DNA from: Azolla caroliniana | Lineage: Eukaryota > Plantae > Polypodiophyta | Direction of reading: 5' to 3' | DNA length: 64,000 nucleotides | Assembly: GCA_043228905.1 (NCBI GenBank) | Contig: JBHGNT010000014.1 | Span: 16,492,001 to 16,556,000 of the forward strand | Part shown: positions 31,363 to 55,983 of the stretch, piece by piece | Layout of the letters: each line of letters opens with the position of its first letter | How positions within the stretch are numbered: position 1 is the stretch's first letter | Program-made: the position numbers and the translations under genes | Notes under the pieces: model-generated | What the model was told of the DNA's origin: nothing | Seen by the model: the letters and a program-made list of their open reading frames with translations, nothing else | Databases searched by the model: none

Positions 31363-32005
31363 TGTTGAGAATCAAGCTCAACATAGCACAATGTGTGAAC
31401 ACACCTTTTGAGAATCTATGATTACTCAAAGGTCAAGAGTCACACCACTACTCTCTACACATTAACTATGTGTCATAGAATCATATTCTATGATACATAA
31501 CTAATGAGTTACATATTCCCCATGACTATGAGTCTTCACATTCCCCAAGAGAGAGAGTGGTTGTTGTAGTTAGTTAATGAAGAGAGAGGATGACTCTATA
31601 TAAAGCACCCTCCTCATACTTCGTACTAAGTTGGTTGTCACTCCTTGTTATGCTACATTTTGTAAATCTTATTCTACTTGTGAAATATACACCTTCTTCT
31701 TGAGTATTCCTTTTTCTATCTATCTTGTGTTCTCTCATCTCTCCTCTAATTCCTCTCACACATACACATAACACACATCTCTTCCACTACACAAGAATCA
31801 TACCCGATTCTTTACATGGTATCAGAGCGATTTGGTAGCTCAATCCAGCCCACTCACCTCATCGTGATCGTGTGTTGTGCTCTACGCCGACGTTCAAGAA
31901 GAACTGGCTCATCGCTATCGTAGTACCACTCATAGCTCGTGTTCGAGAGAGAAGGAAAAGAAGAAAGGAAGCTTAATCGACAATGAATACTCAAATGGGG
32001 AGCGA
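31363..32005 (+). mobile_element. Copia-A': 5' end of a same-family Copia inserted in opposite orientation (LTR 31363-31816, PBS, gag start)
   Basis: TGTTGAGAATC...TTTACA LTR, a near-identical reverse complement of 28479-28895; PBS TGGTATCAGAGC (tRNA-iMet) at 31817; gag start MNTQMGS cut off at 32006. Confidence 0.9.
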
Positions 32006-32086
32006 TGTCGTGAGAATCCGTCACTATGTGTGGATCGTGAGACGGAACCGTTGGGGTTATGAACTGGAAGGAATTAGTACACACAC

Positions 32087-32438
32087 TGTTGTTGGGCTAA
32101 GAATGGCCTCACCCCCCTCCCAAGGGGGTTACGTGAGAGAGAGAAAGAAGGAGAGTGAAAATAAGAAGTGACACAAAATGAGAGGGGAAAAATCTATATT
32201 CCATTATGCCCCATGGGTGGGGTTTATATACTACAAGGGGTAACCGTTACAAAGAAAGAAGGAGACAAGTAGGGAGTTACATTTCTTACCCACTTTCTCA
32301 CCTTTGTACACATACACACCAATATGCATGTGTTCATACACATACTAATCCTCATTCACTCATTCATATTACACATACACATCAACCATATTATCGTGTT
32401 CCACCCCTTATGCCTCCCGTATATCCTTATGGGTAACA
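32087..32438. mobile_element. Solo LTR inserted in the Gypsy-B 3' LTR
   Basis: TGTTG...TAACA ends; TSD CACAC/CACAC; absent from the partner LTR at ~55560. Confidence 0.9.
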
Positions 32439-35117
32439 CACACGCACAACACAAGCAAGATTCACATATAAGATAAGTAGATGAGAGGAAACATTCGTTT
32501 ATTGTAAAAGAAATCTATCCTTTATAAACTTAGAATCATGTTACAATGGATTGGATATGAAAATGAGAGATAAAACTTTTAAAGAAAGGAGCCAACATCC
32601 ATATAAGGAGTGGTCCAATATGAATATGAGAGATTATTGTTGAAAGGAAGGAGCCAACAACCATGTAAGGAGTGGTCCGATATCAATATGAGAGAGATTT
32701 CTTCCCCCAAGGATTGAGAGAGAGAAGAAGAAGAAGAAAAAAAAAGTAGAGGGAAAAAATGGAACTTATATCGAGCTCTTTGTTGATCCCCCTTCCCAAT
32801 GTTACTTTGCATGTCCACTTTTAGTTGCATGCTTCCATTTTTAGTTGCATTCCTTTTACTTTTAGTTGCATGTGACCGTTCGTATAATTCCGTCCGAAAC
32901 GTCCACGCGGCCATGCACGTGTACGCCCGAAACTTGCACACGCGCGTACGCCCGAAACGTGCACACCATATAGTGAACATTCTGTGCTCCACACATTGAT
33001 ATAATGAATAGGTTTTGGCTTTCTATATATATTGGGGAATCCAATGTTATCTTATCTATGTGGGATATCTTACAGTTTTGTTTTCCCCCCCTTTTCTCTT
33101 CAAACTTCTCACTCACATAACGTGATGCTTGTTTATCCATTTCATGCGTAGGAAAATACGTTATGAAGCTCTTGAAGACATCTATCTTTCCACATCAATA
33201 CATTAAGGTAATCTTAAATAATTATTTTACTAGTTTTCATATCGTGTGTGGAAAACCACACGACATTCACCCCCACCAAACCTGCACATCCACCGGTATG
33301 TGCCAATTGTGGTGAGGTTCCTCTTTTAATTACTCTTTTTCAACCTCGATGTTTGAGGCTACATCATCTAGAGCTTCGATTTCAAGATTTGGGGCCTCTC
33401 TTCTCTTAAAGATCTTGATCCTCTTTCCTGCGATTGGCAAGGCAAGTCGAGTTCCATCTAACTCCGCTAAAAAATAGGTTGCATTGTTTCCAATTTTCTT
33501 AACCATATACGGGCCAAACCATCGTTTTGCAAACTTTCGAGCAGTGCTATATTGATTATCGAGACTACTATCATAGACAAGAACCCAATCTCCTTCAATT
33601 TTTCTTTGTCGAAGATGATGCTTTTTATCAAAATCCTCCTTGTTCTTCAATCGAGCCTGGCACAACCATTCTATTGCCAACTCGACATCTTCAGGCCTCT
33701 ATTCTAATTGTTGAATCCTTATAGCTAGCAAATCTTCTCGACTTATTTCATCTTGCCATGGCAAAGATGTCCACGAAGCAATACTTTGCTCAATAGGCAT
33801 TATTGGTTTTTGCCCTAATATGAGTTCGGCCGACATATATCCTGTAGTCGTGCTATGTGTAGTTCTATCAACCCAGAATGCATAAGGTAGTAATTGTGGC
33901 CAATTCCCCATTTTGCCGTCGCAAGCCTTTGTTAGAGCTTTTACAATCGGACTATGTCATCGTTCCACCTTCCCATTTGCGTCTGAGTTGTATGCCATGG
34001 TGAGCAATGGTTTGACGCCTATTCTTGAAAAGAACTCTTTAGCTTCATTTGCATCTAACTCTCCCTTATCTGCTACTATTTTGCTGACACATCCGTATCG
34101 ACAAATGACATCTTCAAGGAGAAACTTACAAACCACCGAAGTTGTTTTATTCCTTAGTGCCCGTCCTTCTACTTGGTTGGTGAGATCCTCTCTTGCTAGC
34201 ACGAGATACTTCATTTGCCCCAATTCCATCGGCATAACAAATATGTCTACCAACCACTTATAATGCATTGATAATGGATATGTCGGATGAAGTTCATCCC
34301 TATGTTGAATATTTGAGTATAATTGGCATTGCTCACATGTTTCAACATAGCTTGCCACATCTTTGTAAACACCCGACCACCAATACTTCTCCTTGAGCTT
34401 TGTGAAAGTTGCCCATATGCCTCGATGACCTGCCCACACACTATCATGAAATTCAACAATTAGTGTTTGTTGATCTTGTTTCTTGCACACTACTCGAAGT
34501 GGAGTTCCATTCTTCATCTTTGGAAACTTTCATAGATGTTCTTCTTTGAGGAAGAACTTGTAGGCCTTCTTCCTAATTCGGTAGAAGTCTTCCTTTGACC
34601 ATGATTCATCCTTTGTAAGAGAGCTTAAGTACTTGCCAATTTCGATGAATTCTCCCTCATAATCTTCTACTTTAAACACTGCTAGCACCCGACCACAAGA
34701 AACCGTAAAGAAGTTTAGGCCAACATCCTCTTCGTTGGAGTGCAAATCTTCTTCACCCTCATACCTTGCCCTTGACAACATATCGGCCACCACATTATGC
34801 TTTCCATTTGTATGTCGAATCTCGGGGTTGAGGGACTTGATATAGGCAATCCATCGCAACATAGCAATATCCGGTGTAGCACAACCGGATATCATTCAGA
34901 GCATAGGTAGACAATTAGTTTTGATTATGACCTCTGTTCCGATAAGGTAGTCACGATCGGTTTTAACCGTAGATACTATTCCCCATAGCTCTCTCTTTAC
35001 TTGGTGTTAAGAATTAGGTAAGTAATTAAGCAAGGATTAATTAGTACCTAATTATGTGATTAGTTGATAAGTGGAAGATTAAGTGATATGTGTGTGTATG
35101 TGTGTATGTTTGAGAGA

Positions 35118-35151
<34 letters not shown>

Positions 35152-36311: not shown

Positions 36312-39300
36312 TGTCGAATACATGTGTATAATGGACGTATTCACACTATCCCGTTTTGGCCATTTATGTAATTAGCATAAAGGGTAGTTGCCCTAAGTCG
36401 GTCACTATATATAGTGACCTTGTAACCTTTTTGTAAGGTTGGTTGTTGTATTATTTGCTTTATGAAATAAAGACTCTTTTGTGCCTCTCTCTCTCTCTCT
36501 CTCTCTGTGCAACGACCTACATTCTGTCATACGCAGGGAATAAACAGGAATCGAGTGCTTCTTGATCTTCCGCACTGACGACATTGCTTACAACATCTGG
36601 TATCAGAGCCTGCACAGTAGTCGGTTCTTCAATCCGCTGTCGGCCGTCGTCTCTGCATTCGGTTTCCTGCGTCATTCGAAGAAGAGAGAAGAAGAAGAAA
36701 AACCAGGTTTGCATCTCATCGCGTTAGATTATCTTGCTTGGAGTAAGCCAGCAGGTTGTACTCCGTTCCTTGTGATCGCAACCGCTCGAGGTGAAATCCC
36801 CTTGTGCAACATTGACACGATCGTGCTCCACTCGGTTAAACGGCATCCGAAAAGGTCATTGAACGCTGTTCGCCGCTCGTTGTAACCACTCGGTGCAGAT
36901 CGGTCTCAAGACAACAACCCCAAATTCGTGCTTCATCTGGCTGATCGACATTCGGGAGGATCAGTTGGATCCGTCTTTCTCGTTGCTGCAGTCAACCGAA
37001 GCAGAATCGGTCCAGATAATCGGGTTCAATAATCGGTATTCGGCATATATATCCGAAGCGAACCGGGCTCACTCCGACTCGGCGACATTCGGGAAGACCA
37101 GTCGGTTCTGTCCCTCAAGTTACCGGAATCAATTCGAGCAAGTTCAACAATACATATATCCGAAGCCGAACCGACTCGGGTTCAAATCCGACTAGAACGA
37201 TATCGGGTGAGCCAACCGGCTGCACTCCAACAAGGTTCTCAGTCAACTCCGAACCAAGCTTCGTCAACCAAAACCGAATTTGATGGCATCAACATCCGGC
37301 TCGTCAGAAATGAGTCTACGAAAGTTCGATGGATCGAACTTCAACTTCTGGAAGGAACAAATGCAGGACTATCTCATAGTCAAGGGACAAATCGATCCCA
37401 TCGAAAATGAAGAACCTCCAGAAGGATACAAACCAATGGAGTGGCAGAAGCTGGACAGAATCGTCCGCGCCACGACTCGGATGCACCTATCGGAATCGGT
37501 ATACTTTACGGTGCAATCGTGTACGACAGCATTCAAACTGTGGAAAACACTGTCGGACACTTACGAAAAGAAGGTCGCCGCAACGAAGATGTTTCTGATC
37601 CGGCGCCTCTACAACTTGCGGATGAAAGAATCCGATTCGGTCCAAGCACACCTCAATGAGTACGAAAGCATAAGCTCCCAAATCTCGTCACAGGGGACGG
37701 CAATCGAGGATGAACTCAGAGCAATGATACTCATGAGCAGCCTTCCCTCATCATGGGAAACTTTCGTCACAACCGTGTGCAACGCGTCAACCACGGCTGT
37801 TAAATACTCCGAAGTCATGAGCGCAATCCTGACCGAAGCAGCTCGGAGAAAGTCTTTCGCCAAAGACTCAACAGACGACGCTTATGTAGTACAAGGTTCG
37901 ACAGACCGATCGAACATACGAGGAAGAGATTCCTCACGACCGCCGAACAATCAGCGAAGACGGAGCCAGTCACGGGATAACCGAATCTGCAACTATTGCA
38001 AGAAACCCGGACACATCAAAGCCGACTGCCGCGCACTCAAGAACAAGAACAACAAGAAGAGTGGCCGGCATGAGGAGATCAATTACGTCAGCTCCTCAGC
38101 TGATGTACTACCGGACGACCCGAATATACTATCAATCGAAAATCCAGTCGGATCAGAAGTTCTGCTCACGACTGAAGAATCGAGCACATGGCTCTTGGAT
38201 TCGGGCGCGTCATTTCATGTGACTCCTCATCGGTCCCAATTTCGGCAATATACGATCCGTCACTCCGACTCAGTTCGGGTCGGCAACTCACAACACTGTG
38301 ACATCATCGGAATCGGCACAGTAGAGCTCAACCTTGCAGGTGGCTCTACACTTGTACTCCACAATGTCCGACATGTACCCGAGCTCTCAAGGCCATTGAT
38401 CTCAGTCGGACAACTAGATGAAGACGACATTCGTGCCGGTTTTTCTTCGGGAGGGTGGACACTCCACAGGGGGAACCTCCTGCTTGCTAGAGGACCCAAG
38501 ATACACTCCCTGTATCCGTTACATGTTACGCTCAGAGAGGGTAACCTGTTTTTGGTGGATATTCCTGTGTCATCACTATGGCACCGAAGATTAGGACACC
38601 TCAGCAAGGCCGGCATCACGCATCTATCTAGAGCCGGATACATCCCCAAACTCTCCTTCTCCGACCATCAATTCTGCGAGCATTGCCAGTATGGCAAACA
38701 AGTAGCCGCATCACACCCGACATCAGCACCAAGAGAAACGAGACCTCTTGATTTAGTCCATTCGGACGTCTGTGGCCCAATGCCGCATCAGTCTCTAGGT
38801 GGTGCCTCTTACTTCGTCAGTTTTATTGACGATTCGACTCGAAAGGTGTGGGCTTATCCAATTCGCACCAAAGATCGTGTCTTCTCGATCTTCACCGATT
38901 GGCTCGCTATGGTGGAAAATCAAGCCGACCGAAAGCTGAAATGCCTTCGGACAGACAATGGGGGAGAGTTCAAATCCGAAGAATTCGTCAAATTCTGCCG
39001 ACAACGCGGCATCCGACGTGAATTTACGGCACCACACAGTCCGGAGCAAAACGGGATTGCAGAACGAATGAATCGGACAATCCAAGAACGGATAGTTTCC
39101 ATGCTCCAACACTCCCGACTGTCGGATGGCTTCTGGGCAGAGGCTCTACTCACGGCAGTACACATAATCAATATGTCGCCAAGTAGACCTCTAGGACTTC
39201 AAATTCCTCAGGAACTATGGATCGGCAGTAAGCCGAATTACGACAAGCTGAGGACCTTCGGATGCGAGGCGTACGCCCTCATTCCGAAAGATGATCGCCG

Positions 39301-41773
39301 AAAACTTGCACCTCGGTCCAGGAAATGCATTTTCCTTGGATATGGATCAGACGGCGAAATGGGATACCGACTCTGGGACCCCGAACGCAGACAAATCGTT
39401 CGAAGTTCGGACGTTGTGTTCAACGAGTCGGCTATGAATCCATCAGTCGAAAAACCGATCGAAGTCCGAAGGGTAACATTCTCCGATGTGCCGACCCTTC
39501 AAGAAGGCCCCGCTCTCAACACACGGTCAGCTTCACGGGTAGCTGAACCTTATACTACCGACTCGGACAACTCTGACTCGGCACAGCCGAATGATTCGGT
39601 TTCGGACCATCCGACCTCGATACCCGATGCGACCAGTCCAATCATACCTCGACGATCCGGGAGACTGTCGCAACCTCCGGAGAGGTATTCTCCTGGAATT
39701 TTCTTCACCGACGCCGGCGAACCGACGTCTTACGAAGAAGCATCGACATCTGTCGATTCGGCCACCTGGCATCTGGCGATGGAGTCGGAAATGCACTCCA
39801 TTCGGGCAAACAAGACTTGGGATCTGGTCGAATTACCTAGGAACCGACGTGCTCTTCCTTGCAAGTGGGTTTATCGACTAAAAGAGACGTCTGATTCGAC
39901 CACCCCAAAGTACAAGGCCAGATTAGTTGCGAAGGGCTTCCGACAAGAATATGGCGTCGACTTCGACGAGATTTTTTCACCAGTGGTGAAAATGACAACC
40001 CTTCGTTTTCTGCTCGGCGTCGTGGCAGCCGACAACTTGGAGCTGATTCAGCTAGATGTCAAAACAGCCTTCCTCCATGGTGATCTCGAGGAGGAAATTT
40101 ATATGGAGCAGCCAAAAGGCTTCGTGGCAACTGGCCAAGAACATCTAGTCTGCCGACTCAGGAAGAGTCTATACGGCCTCAAACAGGCACCGCGACAATG
40201 GTACAAGAAGTTCGACGACTTCATCCAATCGATCGGCTTCTCCAAAAGCGATGAGGACCATTGTCTCTTCACCAACACAGCTCAAGATGGATCACCCATC
40301 TTCCTCATCATTTACGTGGACGACATGCTAATTTCTGGACGCCACGCACGCGAACTTGCCGATCTCATTCGGCAACTGCGGTTGAAGTTTGCCATGAAGG
40401 ACCTCGGTCCGGCACGACACATCCTTGGCATGAAGATTAGTCGGCATCGCGATAAACGACATCTCTTTTTGTCTCAGACTGACTATATCGGACGTGTCTT
40501 GGAACGCTTCAACATGCAATCAGCCAAATCTGCTTCAACCCCGCTCCCAATGAATCTTCGGCTCTCTCAGCGAGACTGCCCGACATCCGGCCCGGAGGGG
40601 GAAGATATGAAGTCGGTACCGTATGCACCGGCAGTCGGCTCCCTTATGTACCTGATGGTCGCGACACGGCCTGACATCTCTCATGCCGTAGGAGTCGTTA
40701 GCAGATTTATGCACAATCCTGGCCGATCGCATTGGAACGCAGTCAAGCATGTGTTCAGATATCTGGCTGGCACAAAAGATCACGGCATTCTTTTCGGTCC
40801 GAACCGAACCTCAGGCGTAGTCGGTTACACCGACTCGGACTTCGCCGGCTGTATAGACAGTCGGAAATCAACAACCGGATACTGCTTCAAATTCGGCAAT
40901 GGAGCAATCTCGTGGAAGTCGAAACTTCAGGAGTGCACAGCGACCTCAACGACCGAAGCTGAATATGTAGCTGCGTCCGACGCAGCAAAAGAAGCTTTGT
41001 GGCTCGGTCGGCTGGCGCACACGTTTCGACAAGTCGACCATGACTCGGCTCCAGTTGTCTACAGCGACAGTCAAGGTGCTGTTGCCTTGTCGAAAAATCC
41101 GGTTCACCACAACGCCTCCAAACATATCGATGTCCGATATCACTTCGTTCGGGACTGCGTCATTTCAGGGAAAATCGGTCTAGAGAAAATATCCACAACC
41201 GACAATGTCGCAGATGGAATGACCAAGTGTCTTTCGGCAGACCGTTTTCGGTCTCTTCGGCATCAGATGGGCGTAACGACAAACCAGTCCGGTTAGAGCC
41301 GGACACAGAGCAGGATGGTTCCCGACAACCGACATCAGTTGCTTAATGATCGGCTTCAACTGTTCCGACCCGACCAGTTCGGTCTTCTGCCTTCGGACCC
41401 TGCCGACTCGAACAAAGCTGATATGTCCGAGAACCTAAGTCTATACCTGTAATCTAAGATAACCCATGTATACGCCCATTACGGGGGAGTGTCGAATACA
41501 TGTGTATAATGGACGTATTCACACTATCCCGTTTTGGCCATTTATGTAATTAGCATAAAGGGTAGTTGCCCTAAGTCGGTCACTATATATAGTGACCTTG
41601 TAACCTTTTTGTAAGGTTGGTTGTTGTATTATTTGCTTTATGAAATAAAGACTCTTTTGTGCCTCTCTCTCTCTCTCTCTCTCTGTGCAACGACCTACAT
41701 TCTGTCATACGCAGGGAATAAACAGGAATCGAGTGCTTCTTGATCTTCCGCACTGACGACATTGCTTACAACA
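36312..41773 (+). mobile_element. Copia-C: intact young Ty1/Copia (Tnt1/Tork-like), 5462 bp
   Basis: 284-bp LTRs (36312-36595, 41490-41773) with no difference found by eye; perfect TSD CTTCC; PBS tRNA-iMet 36598-36609; PPT GGGGGAG; single uninterrupted gag-pol. Confidence 0.97.
37283..41296 (+). CDS. Copia Gag-Pol polyprotein (1337 aa)
   Basis: KFDGSNF, Zn knuckle CNYCKKPGHIKADC, PR WLLDSGASFH, INT HHCC plus DVCGP/TDNGGEF/NGIAERMN, RT YVDDM, RNase H TEAEY...HIDVRYHFVRD...ADGMTK. Confidence 0.95.
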   Translation: MASTSGSSEMSLRKFDGSNFNFWKEQMQDYLIVKGQIDPIENEEPPEGYKPMEWQKLDRIVRATTRMHLSESVYFTVQSCTTAFKLWKTLSDTYEKKVAATKMFLIRRLYNLRMKESDSVQAHLNEYESISSQISSQGTAIEDELRAMILMSSLPSSWETFVTTVCNASTTAVKYSEVMSAILTEAARRKSFAKDSTDDAYVVQGSTDRSNIRGRDSSRPPNNQRRRSQSRDNRICNYCKKPGHIKADCRALKNKNNKKSGRHEEINYVSSSADVLPDDPNILSIENPVGSEVLLTTEESSTWLLDSGASFHVTPHRSQFRQYTIRHSDSVRVGNSQHCDIIGIGTVELNLAGGSTLVLHNVRHVPELSRPLISVGQLDEDDIRAGFSSGGWTLHRGNLLLARGPKIHSLYPLHVTLREGNLFLVDIPVSSLWHRRLGHLSKAGITHLSRAGYIPKLSFSDHQFCEHCQYGKQVAASHPTSAPRETRPLDLVHSDVCGPMPHQSLGGASYFVSFIDDSTRKVWAYPIRTKDRVFSIFTDWLAMVENQADRKLKCLRTDNGGEFKSEEFVKFCRQRGIRREFTAPHSPEQNGIAERMNRTIQERIVSMLQHSRLSDGFWAEALLTAVHIINMSPSRPLGLQIPQELWIGSKPNYDKLRTFGCEAYALIPKDDRRKLAPRSRKCIFLGYGSDGEMGYRLWDPERRQIVRSSDVVFNESAMNPSVEKPIEVRRVTFSDVPTLQEGPALNTRSASRVAEPYTTDSDNSDSAQPNDSVSDHPTSIPDATSPIIPRRSGRLSQPPERYSPGIFFTDAGEPTSYEEASTSVDSATWHLAMESEMHSIRANKTWDLVELPRNRRALPCKWVYRLKETSDSTTPKYKARLVAKGFRQEYGVDFDEIFSPVVKMTTLRFLLGVVAADNLELIQLDVKTAFLHGDLEEEIYMEQPKGFVATGQEHLVCRLRKSLYGLKQAPRQWYKKFDDFIQSIGFSKSDEDHCLFTNTAQDGSPIFLIIYVDDMLISGRHARELADLIRQLRLKFAMKDLGPARHILGMKISRHRDKRHLFLSQTDYIGRVLERFNMQSAKSASTPLPMNLRLSQRDCPTSGPEGEDMKSVPYAPAVGSLMYLMVATRPDISHAVGVVSRFMHNPGRSHWNAVKHVFRYLAGTKDHGILFGPNRTSGVVGYTDSDFAGCIDSRKSTTGYCFKFGNGAISWKSKLQECTATSTTEAEYVAASDAAKEALWLGRLAHTFRQVDHDSAPVVYSDSQGAVALSKNPVHHNASKHIDVRYHFVRDCVISGKIGLEKISTTDNVADGMTKCLSADRFRSLRHQMGVTTNQSG

Positions 41774-44700
41774 CTTCCGTCCGACGTGGAGCTCGTAGGG
41801 AGTTAGCTCATGGACTCCATTGGTGGTACACCGATTCATGAGATAGACGGCCGTGGATGCCGCTTCGGCCCAATAGAAATTCAGCATGTGCTTCTCATGC
41901 ATCATGGCGCGTGCTACCTTGAGTATTTGCCGATTTTTCCTTTCGGCGACTCCATTTTGTTGGGGGCTTGTGTCGGCACGAGAATTCTCTTCGAATGCCT
42001 TCACTTTGGAGGTAGGAGGTGAATTCATCGGAGAAGTACTCCTTGCCTCCATCCGATCGTAGGCATCAAGTGTGCCGACCAGTTTCTTTTTCGACTTGCC
42101 CCTTGAGCTTTTGGAAGTGGGAGAGCACTTCGCTTTTCTTCTTCATCGGGTAAATCCACGCGTAGCGCGAGTAGTCGTCGATGAATGTTACGTAGTATCT
42201 GCATTCGCCAATCATCGGCGTTGGAGCCGGTCCCCATACATCCGAGTGTATGAAATTGAGGAGGCCTTTGCTTGTGGAGCTCTCCTTCAGGAATGGGAGT
42301 CGATGTTGTTTTCTGAGTTGACACGCTTCGCATACTGGGTCGACTCATTTCGACTCGAATGTCGGAAGTCCGATGACGACTCCCTTGGTTTGCATCACTC
42401 GTAGCCGTTGGAGGTTTATGTGGCCGATTCTCTTGTGCCACAACTCAATGCTTGTCTCGGTTTTGAGACCTTTGGCATACATTGCTGATTTCACCTCGTT
42501 CGAATCGAGGATGAACATTTGGCCGTCTCTCCGCCCCTTAGCTATGAGTCGACCATCTTTCTCAATGAAACAACCTTCATTGTTGAAGCGGACTTGCATG
42601 CCTTGCTCCACGATTTGGCCGACTGAGACCAAATTCTTCGTTATTGTGGGCACGTGCAAGACATTCTTGATGCAAGTTTGCTCGCCTTCTTTCCCGAATG
42701 GGACATTGCGGATGTGCCGAATGGGGTGCGTGGTGTCATCTCCCGTCTCTATGAAGCCGGGTCGATCCGGCGTTCGTAAATCACGAAACCACTCTTCGTG
42801 AGATGTCATGTGATGTGAGGCGCTAGAATCGATGAACCACATGTCTTCCGAGTTGGAGGTGCTTGTGGAGTTGGAGGCCGACATAGAGTTCGCTCTATGC
42901 CTCATTACAAATAGTCCACCATAATCATCGTATTCGGAGTTGACGGCGTAATTCGTGAGTTGTCGACTTGTGGAAGCCGACGCGTTTCTTCTTTTTCGGC
43001 ACTCCTCGCGATGGTCGATTTTGCCGCAATAATTGCAAGTTGCGGGCCTCGTTTGCCGACCATGTTCAGCGTGGAAGCTCCCCCTTCTTCCAAAGGTTCC
43101 TCGATGGCTTCCGTGAAGGTTTGAGTTCCCTTCATGTGATGGGTCGAATTGGCCTCTTCTACCGCCGTGACCTCCTCCTCAGCCACCGTCTGAATTCGAG
43201 AAGAACATTTGTCCTTCCGACGTCTTGCTTTTGGTTCGGACGTGGTTCTCTTCGACCAATAGCATTGATTAGAGGTCGAAGAATGAAGGAGGTTTTTCTC
43301 TCGCCAAGATTGCTGTCCGTAATGGATCGAATCGTTGTGCGAGGCTACCCAAGCATACTTGAACCATCTCGTCTTCGTCGACGTTTATTTTGATGGAGCC
43401 AAGCGAGTTGCAAATGCTCTTGATCTTGGCGGTGTAGTCCGACACATACATGTCTTTTTGCTGAATGTTGTTCAACTCTTGTCGGAGTTGAAGCTTTTGT
43501 GCAGTCGTGTTGGCGGCGAATATTTTCTTTAAGTTCGCCCACGCTTCTTTAGGCGTGTTGGCATCTCGAATGTGGCTAAGCATGTGGTCGTGGACACATG
43601 TTGCCAAACAATACATGACTCGACTCGCCGCTTGCTCCCATGTTGCGTAGTCGGCATTCTTTGAGTCGGGTCGATTTTCTTGAGCGTCGTTGATGTAGCT
43701 CCAATACCCTCGGCCGACGAGGTATTGGGTCATCTTGTACTCCCAAGATGAATAATTGCTCCAGTCTAGCTTTTCACTAGGGAGCATACTACCCATTTGT
43801 GTGTTCATGTTGATTAGTGTCTTCTCTTCTTTTACTTTTCTTCGTTCGATCACGTACACGTGCTACATAGCGGCACTACGGTAGCCGATAGCCAGATTTT
43901 GTCGTCGGCGTCTCGAACACACAATCACAGAGTCGGGTGGGCTTAGTGGATTTTCTAAACCACATGCTCTGATACCATGTTAAGAATTAGGAGATTAATT
44001 AAGCAAGGATTAATTAGTACCTAATTATGTGATTAGTTGATAAGCGGAAGATTAAGTGATATGTGTGTGTATGTGTGTATGTTTGAGAGAGGAAGAGAGA
44101 GAGAGAGATACAACACAAGATGGGAGATGAGTAAGTATATTAAATTAGCATTATCATCATCAAATACAAAAATACCCACAATGAGGTATATATACATCTC
44201 ATGTGCAAAGGTGCACATGTGTGAGTAGAATATAGGTACTAATGTGTAAGTCCTATATTAAATGTACTTAGGAGTGGAGGATCTAGAATATCCCACTTAA
44301 GTACAAGGTCCTATTTAAGGCGTTATAGTCAACACTTTTGACTAGATTCTATCTAGGTAACTACGAAGTTACATTGTTGACTAACTAACTAAACTAAATT
44401 GAGCTTGATCTCTCAACATTTGGGCATACTTTCTTTGTCTTTCGGTCAACAACTTTGCACCAAATCGGATTGCATACCGATTCTTTTCTTTGTCTTCTTG
44501 GTTTATCACCCATCCAATTCCAATCGGGCTTGTATCCACTGTCACATATATCGGGGTACCTTCGGTGTAGTTGTCTTTTCGCAGTGCCGGAGCTTCCAAT
44601 AATAGTTTCTTTAGCTTTTGAACCGCGTAGGTATGCTCATCTTCCCATTCGAACTTCGTCCTTTTCTTTAGTAATCCATACAATGGTTAAGCAACATGAG

Positions 44701-46873
44701 CATAATGTGGAATCCATATGTGATAGAATGACATGCTCCCAAGAATCTTCGCACCTATGTTTGAGACACACATTCTTCTTTCATCTCTTGAATAGCGTTC
44801 ACCTTGGATGGAGATGGCTTCCGGCCATAAGACCCACATAAGTGTCCTACTACCAATATTTCTGGTTGACCGAATGCAGACTTCTCTCCCGAAAACATGA
44901 GATTTGCATCCTCAAGCTTTTGCAACACCTTCTCGCTATCCTTTATATGATCGATGACGAATCTTCAGCAACCATCTTCATCTTTCGATTCATCTTTCTC
45001 TTCCACCAAGAATCCTTTGATTGGAATGTCATCTAAGAAGGGCATTGTGATATCAAGGATACAATACCTCAACACTTTATTCATGGCATTGACCATGTGG
45101 GCTATAGAATTTGTCGCCCCAAGGTGCACATCCTTACCAACCCAATTGGCGTCCTCATTGTCGTTATGTCTCTACTATCGACAACCAATTGAAACTGATC
45201 ATAGCTTGAGTAGAGATCACCAATGGAATAGATCGATCTTCCCGCGAAGGCTTCGGCAAATTCATCCACGCTTGAACCAATTCCGGCATTTTGGATCGTC
45301 ACCTTGTTGACGGGTTGGAGATCTTGAATAAAGCATAAGGACCCATTCTTCTTTGGCACCGTAAACCATCTATTAGAGTAGGGAGCATTGGATGACTCAA
45401 GAATTCCCATCCTAACCTTTTCCTTTAGAAGCTCAATAAACTTCGGAATGTGAGCTCTTGGAACCGGTATCGGCTTGAGGTTCCAAGGTACATGCGGCAC
45501 CATAAATATCACCATCGACTCTATCATCTTCGGGTCAGCACATCCAATCTCTTGTGGGGAGAAGGCGAAGGCTTTCCCATGTCTCTCAAGCATTCCGCGG
45601 AACATTTGCTCCTCTTTAGGGAGGAGGAAATTCTCCTTTCCAACTTGTAGCTTCCCTTTTGTCTCTTTAGTAAAGACATGACCTATTGCCTTTGGATCCC
45701 TTAAGCTTGGATCATTAGAAACTTCCTTCATCTTTTGCTAGCTATCTTCCGGTAGCGGAACCGCAACTGGCTTGATCTTTCTATCCACTGTTTTATATTT
45801 TGTGTTGACTTCAGCTTCCTCCATCAAGATGCCTCGGTGATATTCATCGATGATAGCGTACATGTTGACGGAGTTAACCGAAATCTCATGTCGATTGTGA
45901 GGATAACTCAAGTCCACGACTTCCTCGATTTCGCCGATGGTGTCGTTAAATGAGGCTTCCTCTAGAATATGAGGTACGAATTCTTCTTCTCCTATTATGC
46001 TTTCTTCTTTCAGCGCCTTCTCGAAGTCTTGTGTCCGACGCTTGTACTTCTTGTTGAGTAGTGTTAGTTTACATGCGCCACTAGGTGTGACACATGTTGC
46101 TTCTCCTTGCAATCCACGTGCTCTACTTCCTTGTGGGGACTTATGATTTCTTGGACTATTTGTGCCCCATGCTTCAATAGTCCGTTCTAAAAATCTGAAG
46201 ATTCGCCTCCAAGGTTATCTCGGTTCCTTTCGTGATTGGCTCGCACCATTAGGAATTGAACAGATCTTTCGTTGTCAAGGCTCTTGACTCGCGCAAAAGA
46301 TGCTCCATTATCGAACACCTTGGTCTCCATCCGGGACGATGTGATATACAGTTGTCCTAGGATGATAGGATGTGAAGCTGAGTCTTGCACGAAGAAGTGT
46401 TGATCCATCTCCACATCTCCAATCGTGACTTTAACATTGGGGCAAGCTCCGTACAAGTCTTCTGTGCCCTTCGTTGCCGCTCGAATCTTCCATCCGTGGT
46501 TTGTATTAATCGGCCATCTTCCCTTTTTGTAGAACTCGGTCAACATGAGGTTAATCTCCGAACCATGGTTAATCAAAGCTACCATAGTCTCTTTCTTCTC
46601 CCCGATCGTCACCAACGTTTTCGTTGTCGCTCTTTCTCCTCTTTTGATCTTGCCATAGTTATGACTCTTGTTTTCACCTCCTCTTCATCCGCTTGTTGCT
46701 GCTTCGGCTTAATCAAGTCCACGATAGTATCGTGGAACTCCTTCTTAGCGATCCCAAGTAGCTCTCTCAAAGTAAGGTCGACATGATTGTCTAAAACATT
46801 ATCCTCAAGGACCTTCCACAAGTCGGTTGTTTGTTCTATGTCCGACCTTACCTTGTAAGTCGGCATTGCTCGT

Positions 46874-49800
46874 TGTCGCGTTGTTACGCGCGTGCATGTA
46901 GAAAGAGGCGGGACCGCGGGGGCCTTGAACCGAGGAGCAAGAGAGAGAGAGAGAGAGAGAAGAGGAGAGGAGAAGAGATTTGCAGATACGCAGAATGGAG
47001 AAGGAAAGAGAAAGAAACGGAACACTTAATTACAGTAACAGTCGATTACAATATCAAGAGATTACAAACTCTGACGATTACAACCGGCAAGGCGGCGATG
47101 GACCCGACACGGGGATCCTACTCACGCACACAGACAGAACACACTAGACCCCTAAAACAAGAAGCGTAGAAGGGAGTGCCTCTGCTGGCAGCACACGGGC
47201 TACCCACGAAGCAGAGGCGTCAAACTCCCAGCACTCACAAAGAATGACGATCGGAGGAGGAGAGAGAGCTCAACACTCGGTCCTGCAACACTTCGTCCTC
47301 CCTATCGCGCGATACCTTTTCTTCCTTCTCTCCCTCCTTAAATAGTTCGCAAAAAGGGAGACCCTTCTTCCTTAGTCCAATTGCTTTTTTCCCTGTCCCC
47401 TTCGACAGAGATACGCACAAATCCCCTAATAAATGTGTACTACCTAGTATTTGCATCAGCCGACCTAATTACGAATTATGTACAAAATATCAATTCTCGC
47501 GTCCACCCGTGTAAGAGCCGGTTCATGCGCCCTTTTCTCCGATTCCACCCATGGCCGGTTTTCTTCACGACATCCACCCCCACCAAACCGCGCATCCACC
47601 GGCATGCACCAGAGACGGGTAGATACCGAAGAAAACCGGCTTCACTTGTCGCTCTCCGATTCTTGCCGGGCTCGAACCGATCGTCGTCGTCGCTATCGCT
47701 CGCTAGCTCCGGCTCGTCTTCGAACCGATTCTTGAACGCTTTGATCTGCTTTCCGGCCACCAGTACCGCTAACCGTGTCTCGTCGAGTTCCGCTAGGTGG
47801 TACGTGCCGTTGTCGTTCACGCTCGTCACCGTGTAGGGCCCGAACCATCTCCTAGCGAACTTTCGCACCGCCTTGTGCTGATTGTCGAGGCTGTTGTTGT
47901 ATACCAAGACCCAGTCGCCTTCCTCGATCTTCTTTGGTCGCAACCAGTGCGTCCGGTTGAACCGGGTCTTGTTCTGCTCCCTTGTCGCCCGCAAATTTTC
48001 CTTCTCCCGTTTCACGTCCTCCGGCCTCCGCTCGAGTTGCCGAATCCGCACCGCCAGCACCTCCTCCCGGCTCATCTCGTCCTTCCAATCTACCGCCGCC
48101 CATAAAGAAACCATTCGTTCAACCGGCATGATCGGCTTTTGTCCATACATCAGCTCTGCCGGCATAAACCCTGTCACCGAACTGTGCGTAGTTCGGTCCA
48201 CCCATAGCGCGTAAGGAAGGAGCCGTGGCCAATTCCCGACCTGCCCTCCGCATGCACGCACCAACGCCTTTACGATCGGCCCGTGCCCACATTCTACCTT
48301 CCCGTTCGCCTCCGGATTGTACGCCGTAGTGAGGGAGAGTTTGACCCCTAGTTGGTCGAACAACTCCTCAGCTTCCCGCGCATCCAGCTCTCCCTTGTCC
48401 GCCACGATCCTCCCGACGCACCCGTACCGACACACTACCTCTTCGATCAGGAACCGGCATACCGCCACAGTTGTCTTGTTCTGCAGTGCACGGCCTTCCA
48501 CCTGGTTCGTTAAGTCTTCCCGTGCAAGCACCAGGTATCGCATCTGTCCTACTCTCATCGACATCGTCACCAAGTCCACCATCCACTTGAAATGGACTGC
48601 AGGCGGGTAAGTCGGGTGTAGCTCGTCCCGATGTCAAACTATGGAGTGCATCTGACAGCTTTCGCAAGTCGTTACGAATCGATGCACGTCCTGGTACAGC
48701 CCCGGCCACCAGTACTTCTCCTTCAGCTTCTCGAACGTGGCCCACGTTTTGCAGTGCCCGGCCCAGGGACTCTCGTGAAATGCCGCCAATAGTTCCTCCT
48801 ATTCTTCTTTCTTTGCCACTACTCGGAGCGGGATGCCGTTTCTTTTCTTTGGGTGCCTCCATATGCACCCGTCCCGTAGGAAGAATCGGTACGCCTTCTT
48901 CTATACCTGGCTCGCCTCTTCTCTTGTCCACGATGCGTTCGACGTCATCGCCCGTAGGAACCTCCCGATTTGGAGCCACTCCCCATCGTACCTGCTTTTG
49001 TCAAATTCGTTAAGCGCCGGAGTGTCCCCTTTCCTCGTCGTCACATTAGCCGACCCAAAGAAGTCCTCGCCGACTTCTTCGTCATCCGAAACCATGCCGT
49101 CTTCGTCGTTGAACCTTGCTCTCGAAAGCATGTCGGCCGTGGCGTTATCCTTTCCGGAGATGTGCCGTATCTCCGGGTTCAGGGACTTAATGTACGCTAT
49201 CCACCGGAGCATTGCTAGGTCCAACGTCGCGCATCCGAAAACCATGCCGAGTATTGGCAGGCAGTCCATCTCGATTGGTAGCTCCGTCCCGATCAGGTAG
49301 TCCCTGTCGGCCTTGATTGCCAAAACGATACCCCATAGTTCGTGCTTGACTTGGGCGTATCCTCGCTGTCGCTCACTCAATACCTTCGCCCCGAACTGGA
49401 TCGGGAACTGTGCGCCATCCTCGTCCTCCTGGTTGATCACCCACCCGATCTCGGTCGGGCTCGTGTCCACCGTCACATAGATGGGGACTCCCTTACCGTA
49501 AACCGCTTTACAGAGAGCTGGCGCTACCATAAGCGCCTCCTTTAGTCTCCGGACCGACTCCGTATGCTCCGTCCTCCACTCAAAGCTACGCCCCTTTTTC
49601 AATAGCCCGTAGAGGGGTTCCGCGACATGTGCGTAGTGCGGGATCCAGATGTGGTAGAACGCGCATGCTCCCAAGAATCTGCGGACCTCCGTGACCGACC
49701 TGCAATCGTTCCTCATCGCGGAGATGACCTCTACCTTTGCCGGAGACGGTTTCCTACCGTAAGGCCCGCACAGGTGTCTGACCACCAAGATCTCCGACTG

Positions 49801-52800
49801 CCCGAACGCCAATTTTTCTCCGGAGAAGGTGAGTCGTGCGTTTTTGAGCCTTTGCAGCACCTTCTCGCAGTCGGTGATGTGGTTCACGACGAACCTCTGG
49901 CATCTGTTTGGCCCGACAGTCTCGTCCGCATCATCCACCGGACACCCCTTTATCAGGATGTCGTCCAAGAATGGCATGGTGATGTCCGAGATGCAGTCCC
50001 TCAGCACCTTGTTCATTGCGTTCACCATATGCGCCACCGAATTCGTCCCCCCTTGTGGTAGGGTACACATCCGTACTAGGCCGAGAGGGGTTCACATCGT
50101 CGTGATATCCCTACTCTCCACGGCTAGCTGGAACTGGTCGTACCCCGAGTATAAGTCACCAACCGAATAGATCGACCTTCCAGCGAAGGCCTCCGCGAAC
50201 TCGTCTATGGTCGGTCCGATTTCTGCATTACGGATGGTCACCCTGTTGACCGGTTGCAGGTTCTGAATGAAGCGTAGCGTGCCGTTCTTCTTCAGCATCG
50301 TAAACCAACGATTCGAATACGGGGCACTCGACGGTTCAAGGATGCCCATCTCCACCTTTTGCTTCAAAAGCTCCATCAACTTCGGGATGTGAGCTCTCGG
50401 CACCGGAATCGGTTTGAGATTCCACGGTACATGCGGTACCGTGAAGATCACCATCGGTTCGACAATCGTCGGGTCCACGCACCCAATCTCCTCCGGCGAG
50501 AACGCAAAGGCTTTCCCATGCCTTCCGAGCATTCTCCGAAACCTGTCCTCCTCCGCCGCAGTAGAAAGCCACCCCCACTGACCGTAGCATTATGTCGGTG
50601 AACCGGTGCCCTATGCCAGCCGGATTCCGTAAACTTGGGTTTGACGCGACCCCTTTTATTCGCTCCTCGCTGCCCTTCGGCAAGGGTGCCGCGTTTGGCC
50701 TCACCTTCCGGTCCACAGTCTTGTACTTTGTATCCACGCGGGCCATCCGATCCGACCCGATCCTTTCCCTGAAGTCCGTGATGACTTCGTACATTCCCAT
50801 CGAACTAATCGGAATGGTCCGGTCTTCTCTAAGGTCTTCACCGATCACCTTTCGTAACTCGCCCAAGGTGTCATAAAAAGAGACCGCCTCCATGGCGCCG
50901 CTGATTTCTTCGTCGGGGGAGAGGACTCCGCATCCCCTGAGCCGCTCCTCCGCTCGCTTCCTCTCCTGGCCGCTGACGCCGGCTATAGTACAACCTCCGT
51001 TTTCGGAGAACCAAAACTTCCTACCTACTGAACATGTGTGGGGTTCTTCCGATACGTCCAGACTACTGCGGCCCCACGCCTTGATAGCCCTCTCTAAAAA
51101 TCCCCTCAGTTGTTGCCGTCGAGGGTCTCGCGATTCCTCTCATGGTTCAGACGTACGGTCATGAATTTGACGGAATGCCGACCGTCCTGGCTCTTGATGC
51201 GCGCGTACGCCGAACCGTTGTCCAGCACCTTCGTCTCCATGCGTGTTGCTATAATGTATGGTTCGCCGAGAATCACCGGGCGTGAGGATGTTTCCTGCAC
51301 GAAGAAATGTTTATCTATCTCAACGTCACCGACCTTTACGCGTATGTTCAAGCATGCACCATGCAGCTCCTCCGTAGCATGCGTCGCCGCGCGTATCTTC
51401 CACCCATGCTTGGTGTTGATCGGCCATTTACCCCTCTTGTAGAAATCCATGGACATCAGGTTGATTTCAGATCCATGGTCTACCAAGGCCACCACCGGTT
51501 CCGGAACTTCACCGATCCACACAGGGGTTTCCGTAGTTGCCCTGGTCCAATGCGGCTTTGCATAGTGGCTTTCCGCCAACTCGTCTTCTAGGGCCGTTTC
51601 TTCTAAGTGCATAGTCCGCACCTCCACCGGCTTCTCCGGTTCTGGCTCCGTCGATAGCCTCTTCCGCTTCACCAAGTCTACGATGGAGTCGTGGAACTCC
51701 CTCTTGGTGATTCCCAGCACCTCCCGCAACGACAACTCCACTTTACTATCGAGCATCTGCTCTTCAAGGACCTTCTGTAGGTCTGTTGCTCTCTCAATTT
51801 CGGTGCTCAACCGAAACCCCGCCTGCTTCTTTCCGTCCAGCGCGCCTGGGTTGCCGGCACCGGTCGGTTTCGGTCTGAATCGGGTCTCGTACCTCTGAGG
51901 GGGACCGACCCCCCCGGCCTTTCCTGCCCTTTTGTCTTCCACCAGAACCTCGTAGTTCTGGCAAGCGGCTTCTACGAAGCCTATTTTCTCTTCGACCGGA
52001 TCGTCCCATCCGGTGACCTCCTGAACCTGCTGCTCCGCGCGGTCCGCCTCTTCCTTCTTCAGCCGAACTCCGGAGAGGCCTTCTAGCACTAGCGGCCAGA
52101 ATCCGAAGTCCTTCACCTTTCGGGTCTCATCACCCCCGACACGAATTCCCGCCTACACTGAGTAGTTAACGACTTCTACATGCCGTGCCGCGGCCTCTTC
52201 CATCAACCTCTTCATTCCGCCCCGCCCCGTATTTAGTTCTAGGGCTCTCCGGGTGTCGCTCGCGTGGACCCGCCCGTTCCAGAGGTACACCACGTTGGTC
52301 CTGAGCGCGTCGGCGAAATCCATGCAATCCTTTCGAATGTGACCGATCGCGTCACACCATATGCACCGCTGCCCAGCCGCCGACCTCCGGTCGCGAGGTT
52401 GTTTGCCGTTGTCTCTCCGTGCCTATGCGATCTGCGGGTCGCGCACCATCTTTGTCAGCTCCTCCGGATGGGCCTCTGACCACGTCATTCGATGCCGACC
52501 CCGACTCCAGCCAAATTCGGGTCTCTTCCTTCCTACCAGCTGGCACCGATACCGGCTCCTCGAGCCTCCTTAGCGGAACCGGCCTTGACCTCGACGAGCT
52601 TTCGTCGCTCCAATCGCGCCGTTTGTCGAAACGGCTGCAGACCCGTTTTACCACGACCTAGTCTACCGTGAGCCCTTCGTCCGTTTCCAATAGGGGACCC
52701 ACCTTTTCCCTGTCGAGTGCGTCCACCGACTTGACAAACAGTAGTACTCGACTCGTTTTGAGCACGGTCCGGTCTAGCGTCGACAACCGCGCGAACCGTT

Positions 52801-53322
52801 TTTCGAACTCCTTTAGGAGCGCCGACGTGTTCCTCCCTTTTCCGGGGCTTTCCACCCACGCCATGAAGTCCCGCCTCGACAGCCGAAGCGAGTCGTCAAA
52901 CCCGTACTTCTCGAGGAGCTGCAGCTCGAACTCCTCCCAAGTCTAGCATCCGGCCATCACCTCGAGCACCTCCGCGTGGATGCTTGGCGTCACCACCCGA
53001 GGGAATCCGGACAACCGCCTGTCCATCGGGATATCCCTCATGATCATTTCGGCCTGGTAAGCCTCCAAATAACTTGTGGCGTCTTTCCCTCCGAACCAGC
53101 CTATAGTGCCGACGATCGATTCAATGGCTCTGTCGAGGGTACCTGTCCCCTCATGAGCGCTTACCAGCCAGTCGACGGCTACCACCATTACCTCTGCTAG
53201 CTCCGATCCCCTCATCTTTCGACTCCTTTGCCGCCTTTTCATGTCGGGTTCACCAAAGATGTCGCGTTGTTACGTGCTTGTTGTAGAAAGAGGCGGGACC
53301 ACGGGGGCCTTGAACCGAGGAG

Positions 53323-53366
<44 letters not shown>

Positions 53367-53973
53367 AGAGGAGAAGAGATTTGCAGATACGCAGAAGGGA
53401 GAAGGAAAGAGAAAGAAACGGAACACTTAATTACAGTATCAGTCGATTACAATATCAAGAGATTACAAACTCTGACGATTACAACCGGCAAGGCGGTGAT
53501 GGACCTGACACGGGGATCCTACTCATGCACACAGACAGAACACACTGGACCCCTAAAACAAGAAGCGTAGAAGGGAGCGTCTCTGTTGGCAGCGCACGGG
53601 CTACCCATGAAGCAGAGGCGTCGAACTCCCAGCACCCACAGAGAATGACGATCGGAGGAGGAGAGAGAGCTCGACACTTGGTCCTGCAACACTTCGTCCT
53701 CCCTATCGCGCGATACCTTTTCTTCCTTCTCTCCCTCCTTAAATAGTTCGCAAAAAGGGAGACCCTTCTTCCTTAGTCCAATTGCTTTTTTCCTTGTCCC
53801 CTTCGACAGAGATACGCACAAATCCCCTAATAAATGTGTACTACCTAGTATTTGCATCAGCCGACCTAATTACGAATTATGTACAAAATATCAATTCTCG
53901 CGTCCACCCGTGTAAGAGCCGGTTCATGCGCCCTTTTCTCCGATTCCGCCCATGGCCGGTTTTCTTCACGAAA
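46874..53973 (-). mobile_element. Gypsy-C: full-length degenerate tRNA-Trp-primed Ty3/Gypsy nested in Gypsy-B gag (LTRs 46874-47572 and 53260-~53973)
   Basis: Paired ~700-bp LTRs; PBS TGGTGAACCCGACATGA (minus, ~53239-53255); gag-PR 51094-53242; RT/RH 48901-50893 (LPQGGTNS, PFLDD); INT 47476-48800; scattered stops and frameshifts; TSD not cleanly preserved. Confidence 0.93.
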
Positions 53974-55983
53974 TCTCTTTTCCTTTCTTCACAAGTTCAT
54001 CAACTTCCATTCGAGAAGGTTGGTTCGATCCACCGGGCTTCATGCTTGTTTCTCCTATCTCTTTTCGTGGCGTAGGTTGGGCTTGTCCTTCTTTCCTTGC
54101 ATTCCTCGTATTGTGACGCTTTGATGTGCCATCTTCTTCACCGGTTCTTTTCCTCTTCTCTTCGACAAGAGCTTCATAGTTGTCACACACAACCTCCGCA
54201 AAGCTCGTGTTATCGTCGACTGGATCCGACCATCCGGTAACTCGTCGCACATTCCGATCAGCAAGTTGTAGATCCTCCAAATCGATTTTGCCTTTCTTTT
54301 CGCACTCAAATACCGTTGGCCAAAACCCAGCTCCCGGCTTGATCATCTTTAGGTTCTCTCTTCCAACTCGTATCCCGGCCAATGCGGCATAGTGCATGGC
54401 TTCTACATGCCTTGCATCTTCCTCTTCTATGATCTTATTCAGCCCGCCTCTTCCAAAGTTCACTCGTAGTGGCTTCCGGGTCTCGCTCGAATGAATCATG
54501 TTGCCATCCAAATAGACGACGTTCTTGCGAATCGCGTCTTGCAAGTCAGTGCACTCCCTTCGCGAGTGCTCGAAACTGTTGCACCACACACATCTATACG
54601 CTTCTTTTACCTTGGGCCCGCGTCGACCTAAGTTGGCGAACGATACCGCTTCAAATTTCTTGGAGAGCTCTTCGATTATGGATTCTTCCATCGCTTTCTT
54701 GTCGAAATTGTTGATCAGCTTGCTAGGCTTGATCGTCATAGGCGCTTTCCTCCTCCATGATTGTGGATTCTCCATATTAGTTTCCTCTTGCCATTGTCGA
54801 TGCTTATCAAGATGGCTACAAGCCTTCTTCACCGCCGCCCAGTCCGCTACCAAACCATTTGGTTGTGTTTTGTCCTCCAAAAAGTTGCCCAATTCTCGTC
54901 AATCTTTTGCATCCATTACCTTTAGGAATTGTAGGACTTTATCTCCATCGAGAACTCGTTGATTAACATTCAGAAGTCGATTGTACTTCTGGTCGAATTC
55001 GGCATATACTCCAGACGCACACATATTCTTGCTTTTCTTCTCGATCCACGTCATTAGTGTATGTCGAGTCATCCGTGATGCGTCTTCAAGCATGTATTCA
55101 GTGAGAAGCACCTTTTCGAACTCCACCCAAGTTGTGTGCTCGTTTTGGATCTCCATGACATGCTCGCGGATCCCTGGTTCCACCACATGTTTGAAGCTAG
55201 TAATTTGTTTGAGATCGTTGACATCCCTCTACTACATCTCGTTCCGATAGGTAGCAAGAAAATTCGTGATGTTCTTGCCACCAAATCGTCAAGCTATCTC
55301 GACTGTACGATCAACAACTTTGTCAATTAAAGCTTCTCGATCTCTCACCTTCAGCATGTATTCCACTACGGACAACATACCTTTCATTAATTCCTCTCCT
55401 TGAGTTCTACTTGTCGAAGCAATCGTTGTACTTGACATCCTCCCTACCGCCTCTTCACGTTGGGTTCACCACTTAATTATGTCGTGAGAATCCGTCATTA
55501 TGTGTGGATCGTGAGACGGAACCTCCGGGGTTATGGACCAGAACGAATTAGTACACACACGCACAACACAAGCAAGATTCACATATAAGATAAGTAGATG
55601 AGAGGAAACATTCTTTTATTGCAAAAGAAATCGATTCTTTATAAACTTAGAATCATGTTACAATGGATTGGATATGAAAATGAGAGATAAATCTTTTAAA
55701 GAAAGGAGCCAACATCCATATAAGGAGTGGTCCAATATGAATATGAGAGATTATTCTTGAAAGGAAGGAGCCAACAACCATGTAAGGAGTGGTTCGATAT
55801 CAATATGAGAGAGATTTCTTCCCCCAAGGAATGAGAGAGAGAAGAAGAAGAAGAAAAAACAAATTACAGGGAAAAAATGTAACTTATATCGAGCTCTTTG
55901 TTGATCCCCCTTCCCAATGTTACTTTGCATCTCAACCCACACGACGACGAAGAAGAAGAAGAAGAAGAAGAAGAAGAAGAAGA

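Follow-up and report, generated by a model that had tools for sequence, protein, structure and literature searches.

How a retrotransposon obtains its polymerase when gag-protease and pol lie in offset reading frames, and a stop codon closes the first of them, is the question raised by a locus of Azolla caroliniana. The locus lies in a 64,000-nucleotide stretch of contig JBHGNT010000014.1 (positions 16,492,001 to 16,556,000 of the forward strand), here called the window. A short cassette (46196-46134, minus strand) is found there between gag-protease and pol of a decayed Ty3/gypsy element, element B. Comparison of this junction with those of related elements indicates that the cassette is very probably a programmed -1 ribosomal frameshift signal giving Gag-PR and Gag-PR-Pol, of which the window copy would be a decayed example.

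Elements B and C in the window

The internal part of element B is found in three minus-strand pieces (55471-53976, 46874-44409, and 35004-32889), split by a second element of the same type, element C, and by a Copia-type insertion (Table 1). Stops and frame breaks occur in both elements, and B is also split by the nested insertions; with several such lesions in each, both are non-functional. The junction signal would have been functional in the active elements from which they descend, and it is likely functional in intact relatives today.

Table 1. Positions of the features of elements B and C (window coordinates) and of the L038 and L039 cassettes (locus coordinates)
Feature	Position	Strand	Remarks
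B slippery heptamer A_GAU_UUU	46190..46196	-	relatives have G_GAU_UUU
B zero-frame stop TAG closing gag-protease	46187..46189	-	first 3 nt of spacer
B spacer UAGAAC, 6 nt	46184..46189	-	5 nt in relatives with a ninth C-G pair in stem 1
B stem 1, 5' arm GGACTATT (RNA GGACUAUU)	46176..46183	-	predicted pairing
B stem 1, 3' arm AATAGTCC (RNA AAUAGUCC)	46153..46160	-	predicted pairing
B stem 2, 5' strand UGGGG	46165..46169	-	within stem 1 loop; predicted pairing
B stem 2, 3' strand CCCCA	46134..46138	-	14 nt past stem 1; predicted pairing
B gag-protease, 3' part	46187..46874	-	DUF4100-like stretch followed by aspartic protease; frame broken once near 46630
B pol, -1 frame	44409..46193	-	linker of ~130 codons, RT, RNase H start; has stops and frame breaks
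B pol remainder	32889..35004	-	RNase H end, integrase; past nested Copia-type insertion 35005-44419
B primer binding site and gag 5' part	53976..55471	-	primer binding site 55471-55454; four stops
B 5' LTR	55480..55936	-	far end not delimited
B 3' LTR	32005..32818	-	interrupted ~32087-32435; flank TCGC
Element C, nested in B gag	46874..53975	-	at ACGA site; LTRs 46874-47581 and 53260-53975
C homologous cassette	51039..51103	-	same layout as B
C heptamer G_GAU_UUU	51103-51097	-	then UAG 51096-51094
C stem 1	51090-51084/51066-51060	-	7 pairs, 3 of them G-U
C stem 2	51076-51072/51043-51039	-	predicted pairing
AG_GUU_UUU cassettes	L038:2836-2907, L039:2498-2569		pol in -2/+1 frame; same predicted pseudoknot

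Several other features of the window are recorded here for their own sake. A Copia element (37211-41296, plus strand) has an intact ORF of 1361 codons and LTRs (36312-36595 and 41490-41773) that are 100% identical; it is a very recent insertion, inside another Copia-type element that is itself inside B. A third-element fragment of the same lineage as B and C, comprising integrase and part of an LTR (55980-57636, plus strand), is 74% identical to C and inverted. A short LTR-bounded element at 59061-60430 (plus strand), followed by GCGC, has the primer binding site of B and C and apparently no coding domains; it is possibly a non-autonomous derivative. An ORF of 366 codons (61952-63052, minus strand) resembles the N-terminal part of the lineage's gag (32-47% identity), with no protease after it in that ORF. 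A Cullin gene (20591-22666, minus strand) runs uninterrupted for 691 codons with Cullin and neddylation domains, and a 418-nt inverted repeat (28479-31816, 98% complementary) flanks a Copia RT fragment at 29148-30869.

The junction cassette

The protease ORF of element B (46187-46684, minus strand) ends with the codons TCA GAT TTT TAG, and stem 1 is formed by eight Watson-Crick pairs between GGACTATT and AATAGTCC. The letters, the spacer, the eight-pair stem, and the loop pairing given in the preliminary description are each found at their minus-strand positions. Its claim that the -1 frame is open across the junction is likewise borne out: this frame, which is that of RT, has no stop between 46214 and a premature TAG at 45740-45738. 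The folding energy of the B cassette has a z score of -2.3, with 4 of 200 shuffles equally good, and its pseudoknot score exceeds that of all 60 shuffles. Rfam models around the cassette gave nothing near the gathering score (five weak matches only).

The first base of the B heptamer is unusual. The closest relatives have TCG GAT TTT in 12 of 13 cases, and contigs of four sequencing runs mostly have G at 46196, so the A is a variant of the window copy; the earlier guess of a G-to-A change is thus supported. The change is consistent with CpG decay. A_GAU_UUU, which does not fit the X_XXY_YYZ-type pattern even with G_GA allowed, is a rare variant in a dead element. The run contigs that cover the B cassette also have a stem 1 longer by one pair, at 46152.

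Element C carries the homologous cassette with an intact heptamer and a premature TGA two codons upstream of it. Taken alone, the folding energy of the C cassette is not unusual (z +0.63, nested structure against shuffles). The sequence GATTTTTAG occurs twice in the window on both strands, once at each of the two junctions. B and C had been described as independent copies of one signal that differ in LTRs and base composition. The differences are real: the LTRs have no significant similarity (best E 1.4), and the GC content is 0.41-0.46 in the internal part of B versus 0.57 in C. The independence does not hold, since protease and RT DNA of the two elements are 68-69% identical and the signal was therefore inherited by both. 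Pairing is indeed preserved between the B and C stems, as had been proposed, but by one-sided wobble changes; two-sided covariation appears only in the wider set of loci. Two further features thought to be kept at the junction are not constrained. Conservation does not extend to the FLER-I-AWG peptide, which follows the RNA, and selection at the peptide level is rejected; the identity of the stop codon, UAG in both window copies, is free.

A survey of related loci

A metagenome scan yielded 186 confirmed loci, and the best 80 (L001-L080) were analyzed; 75 of these 80 come from one series of assemblies. G_GAU_UUY is found just after the protease in 71 of the best 80 loci, in the protease frame in 69 and after an upstream indel in 2. 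The remaining nine comprise two with AG_GUU_UUU, one with G_GGU_UUU, three single-base variants, one contig end, one deletion, and one unrelated continuation. The codon after the heptamer in the 71 loci is TAG in 31, TAA in 26, TGA in 11, and a sense codon in 3, so that a stop stands directly behind the heptamer in 68; in two of the three sense-codon loci, the stop follows five codons later, inside the loop. The run of five T at the heptamer is nearly invariant, interrupted by C in L053-L056 (G_GAU_UUC).

Of the 63 loci (among the best 80) with enough sequence, 56 have a pol frame that stays open for 200 codons or more. Frames were followed more closely in 27 representatives, selected for open frames. 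Past the heptamer, the zero frame lasts a median of 2 codons and the third frame 11; the pol frame stays open from there in every one of the 27. In the upstream direction, the pol frame closes again 1-38 codons from the heptamer; the distance is a single codon in L022 and L063, which fixes the location of the shift. Where a primer binding site is present, gag and protease mostly form one ORF of about 700-750 codons that starts just after it.

Three loci (L056:4468-4539, L076:1569-1640, and L077:935-1006) represent families whose zero-frame stop falls within the pseudoknot loop, 7 codons past the start of the heptamer, and whose protein ends in DF plus five residues; proteins of Physcomitrium and Adiantum have the same ending. 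From the shift site to a KYK motif ahead of RT, most loci have 121-133 codons (L076 has 141 and L063 has 156), while the sequence of this linker, located at 45800-46190 in element B, diverges; the linker is possibly a domain without a name or a spacer whose length is fixed. A single contig, L045 (1357-2250), contains an apparent tandem duplication of the protease end together with the frameshift cassette. A scan of viral contigs with a protease query found no relative.

Conservation and covariation of the predicted pseudoknot

H-type pseudoknots starting 4-10 nt after the heptamer were sought in 78 cassettes, grouped into 25 clusters. Such a structure is predicted in 23 of the 25, with a spacer of 4-7 nt, and none is predicted in the other 2; the prediction beats all 60 shuffles in 17 of the 25. 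As a nested fold, the L077 cassette is no better than its shuffles (z -0.02).

Covariation was scored on an unfitted alignment of 28 cassettes. In stem 1, 86.8% of 280 cells are paired versus 24-44% in slid controls, and two-sided changes occur at 8 of 10 pairs. The register of stem 2 varies, and each loop was scored against its own downstream segment and against those of other families. Own partners score 457 versus 389 +/- 12 for swapped partners, and 0 of 20000 permutations reach the own-partner value; GAGGGU:ACCCUC, GCGAGA:UCUCGC, and GCAGGGA:UCCUUGC are clear swaps. Kinship among the cassettes inflates these covariation counts. At third codon positions, conservation is 0.79-0.93 in the stem cores versus 0.36-0.71 in the spacer and loops, and because it tracks the stems and not the codon positions, it indicates constraint on the RNA. 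Aligning the junctions with other copies, as the preliminary description had advised, thus found the heptamer, the spacer, and both stems conserved and covarying across families of the best 80 of 186 loci.

Protein ends at the junction

Of 254 protein records, 111 have a tail of 14-50 residues past the end-of-protease motif; the tail ends in DF in 61 and in DF plus five residues in 23, with linkers of varying length. In 84 of 84 cases, a G-ending codon could encode the residue preceding DF, and this is not possible for 243 of 1149 linker residues; as the sequences are related, these counts do not amount to a probability. The 38 full-length gag-protease proteins comprise 24 with a DF end, 9 with DF plus five residues, 2 with VFx, and 3 with other ends. 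The named homologues come from Physcomitrium (ends KDFGEVPL and FVDF), Adiantum (QDFLGVPL), and Riccia (FEDF). No Chara or fungal homologue is named among the matches listed, and a Ylt1-like fungal affinity found no support.

How pol would be expressed

A canonical -1 signal consists of a heptamer, a spacer of 5-9 nt, and a pseudoknot, according to the relevant passages of 10.1101/2021.11.17.468997. G_GA is an accepted exception to XXX in shift heptamers, and G_GGU_UUU, the heptamer of L076, is among the most shift-prone, as stated in the sections of a 2016 review on such sites (PMC5009743). The same sections describe G_GAU_UUU with a nearby stop as the shift site of the pea enation mosaic umbravirus, where the stop matters and its identity does not (PMC5009743). 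The lineage has a heptamer of the G_GA kind, a predicted structure 4-7 nt downstream, and a -1 ORF without a conserved start of its own.

In the mechanism proposed, the pseudoknot would halt ribosomes while Asp and Phe tRNAs occupy G_GAU_UUU, and both tRNAs would slip back one base, to GGA UUU. A minority of ribosomes would continue (transframe ...xDF-L...) to make Gag-PR-RT-RH-IN, and the majority would stop at the zero-frame stop and release Gag-PR. Slippage would thereby set the Gag:Pol ratio and hold protease at the level of Gag. We infer the tandem slippage and the product ratio from the sequence features, which are themselves directly observed.

Other routes to pol were weighed against this mechanism. 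Splicing, in which removal of an intron with the stop and the cassette would bring RT into frame with protease and the hairpin would be a splicing or packaging element, has a precedent in Ogre, which joins GAG-PROT to RT in this way (PMC6317226, in its account of that lineage). Annotated gene models of Physcomitrium, Adiantum, and Riccia do bridge the junction with predicted introns, and three Riccia sorocarpa models share one junction. Across 10 fused models, however, the junctions scatter, with 69-169 residues between protease and RT. A simple pattern search found no donor-like motif in the 75 nt before the heptamer in any of the 27 representatives (0/27), and the would-be intron is open in the pol frame from the heptamer on. 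Splicing would also leave a conserved heptamer at a fixed distance from the pseudoknot unexplained, and it is very unlikely.

Pol might instead be expressed on its own, through reinitiation, internal initiation, or a subgenomic RNA, with the structure serving initiation or packaging. Pol does occupy a long ORF of its own, and in L039 an in-frame AUG lies 3 codons upstream of the heptamer. Yet the position of the first pol-frame AUG is scattered from -23 to +111 codons in the 27 representatives, all of them open from the heptamer, and separate expression is as improbable as splicing.

Slippage of a polymerase or reverse transcriptase at the U run, adding a base to some RNAs and so fusing the frames, would agree with the near invariance of the five-T run, and slippage at shift motifs is a topic in parts of the literature. 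The run is short, however, and is broken by C in the four G_GAU_UUC loci, and a conserved GGA with a pseudoknot 4-7 nt downstream fits ribosomal geometry as passages of 10.1101/2021.11.17.468997 describe it; this route is slightly less probable than the two before it. Stop-codon readthrough is rejected, since pol lies in another frame and each of the three stops is used. Random decay of an ancestral single ORF by a stop and an indel, with stems arising by chance, recalls the many random lesions in both window copies but is refuted by the comparative data: 71 of the best 80 of 186 loci share the break at an identical position, across families with a median RT protein identity of 72%, the two ORFs are otherwise intact in elements with the break, and the stems covary. 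Selection on a recoding signal rather than random indel decay, the view taken at the outset, is thus supported by the 80 loci.

A sub-lineage with pol in the -2 frame

Two loci depart from the -1 arrangement. L038 and L039 read CAG GTT TTT, one codon, and TAG, with the heptamer G_GUU_UUU; relative to the -1 type, one base is missing in the slip site, and the predicted pseudoknot begins 5 nt after the heptamer, one base closer. Pol lies in the -2 (= +1) frame, open for 1153 codons in L038 and 1100 in L039, with RT, RNase H, and integrase present. The gag-protease ORF is intact in L039 and has one internal stop in L038. A tree built from 22 of 38 usable RT pieces places the two as sisters at 100/100 support, with branch lengths of 0.11 and 0.086.

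The ending recurs in other proteins. Within cluster P0375, a QVFD end is found in 6 of 6 members that reach the C-terminus among the matches listed (15 of 35 listed), and 6 of 15 pol members among the matches listed start in the LTRTV register, most of these records perhaps coming from one study series. Two proteins end in QVFY. With these ends and this register present elsewhere, the junction of L038 and L039 is no one-off error. Read contigs give thin cover and weak support at L039, where one 751-nt contig is gap-free over 2489-2540 and none spans the whole stretch. Another protein, P0054, ends in WVFP and may represent a third -2-type family.

On balance, these observations favor a widespread gypsy lineage of seed-free plants with a pseudoknot-driven -1 shift after the protease, in which a sub-lineage would have switched to -2 by dropping one base of its slip site. 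In the HIV cassette, shortening the spacer increases -2 shifting relative to -1. Instead of a -2 shift, L038 and L039 may use a +1 shift at UUU.

Lineage assignment

Element B is a Ty3/gypsy element by its LTRs, primer binding site, and domain order PR-RT-RH-INT, and it is probably a non-chromovirus member of the Phygy lineage. Neither a chromodomain nor an archaeal RNase H (aRH) gave a Pfam hit at E 0.05 in any of 4 full pol translations, in which integrase follows RNase H within ~120-130 residues. One primer binding site motif is shared by 37 of the best 80 of 186 loci and by B and C, and it may be complementary to tRNA-Trp; none of the 31 viral loci with this motif contains a tRNA. TatI, which also has a 4-bp target site duplication and a Trp primer, is excluded by the lack of an additional RNase H in all four pol translations; aRH is present in 100% of TatI in the REXdb material of PMC6317226.

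Phygy has a 4-bp target site duplication of the NCGN type and a tRNA-Trp primer binding site. NCGN precedes 6 of 11 TGTCGTG LTR starts upstream of a primer binding site (10 other rows were set aside). Element C lies at ACGA, with its upstream copy partly lost, and the 3' flank of B is TCGC; no perfect two-sided duplication is seen. The NCGN flanks and the common primer binding site point to Phygy, with which the present elements share the order GAG-PROT-RT-RH-INT, the absence of chromodomain and aRH hits, NCGN near several LTR ends, and many homologues among unclassified Physcomitrium proteins. Phygy was described from Physcomitrium with its coding organization given as "ND" (PMC6317226, entry for that lineage), whereas here GAG-PROT overlaps RT-RH-INT and homologues extend to Riccia and Adiantum. 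That entry left the coding layout undetermined and blamed random stops and frameshifts (PMC6317226). The overlapping layout prevails in none of the 15 gypsy groups in the REXdb tabulation of the same paper (PMC6317226).

Novelty and significance

No published description of this signal was found in the titles and abstracts searched. Term look-up in the text of PMC7466625, PMC12786077, PMC6911290, PMC2864245, PMC13468544, PMC10508981, PMC8310308, and PMC5014426 returned none either. Drawing on a 2003 survey, the 2016 review names no gag/pol arrangement in plant LTR elements other than those with a +1 offset (PMC5009743). The mechanism itself belongs to a well-known class; what appears to be new is its placement after the protease in a plant gypsy lineage, together with the apparent -2 sub-lineage.

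If confirmed, the signal would be a plant retrotransposon recoding signal with strong comparative support, and it would account for a break that is now taken for decay or spanned by false introns in automated annotation. Intact elements of the lineage would then likely be undercounted. The cassette would offer a compact pseudoknot for plant ribosomes with many natural variants. The -2 branch, if true, would give retrotransposons a natural case of -2 frameshifting driven by RNA structure, and the -1/-2 pair would be a natural test of the reporter-based idea that a shorter spacer favors -2 over -1.

Comparison with known systems

Among known shift sites, that of pea enation mosaic virus 2 (umbravirus/dianthovirus type) has the identical heptamer and a zero-frame stop of free identity close behind, as far as the sections on this site in PMC5009743 describe it. 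The umbravirus site is in the replicase gene of an RNA virus; here the stop is usually immediate, the predicted pseudoknot is compact and local, and the host is a retrotransposon. In Rous sarcoma virus gag/pol and in MMTV, a heptamer, a spacer of 5-9 nt, and a pseudoknot set the ratio of structural to enzymatic products, a likeness that is predicted for the plant elements. The Rous sarcoma virus protease is encoded within gag, upstream of the shift. Both of these are retroviruses with a different heptamer, whereas the plant gypsy cassette is followed by a poorly conserved linker of ~130 codons. In Ogre and Retand (Tat), the break likewise falls between protease and RT, but these elements have aRH and rely on either an intron or one in-frame stop, in contrast to the overlapping offset frames of the present lineage, in which no aRH was found in the four pol translations.

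For the -2 branch, the closest likeness is the arterivirus nsp2TF site, with which L038 and L039 share both the G_GUU_UUU heptamer and the downstream ORF in the -2 frame. The arterivirus C-rich CCCANCUCC motif, 10 nt downstream, is absent in L038 and L039, where stem 1 of the pseudoknot takes its place. A protein complex on the C-rich motif 10 nt downstream of the arterivirus heptamer (passages of 10.1101/2021.11.17.468997) contrasts with a predicted pseudoknot 5 nt downstream in the plant loci. A precedent for a -1/-2 split within one group is provided by the Trichomonas vaginalis viruses, in which virus 1 uses a -2 shift and viruses 2-4 use -1.
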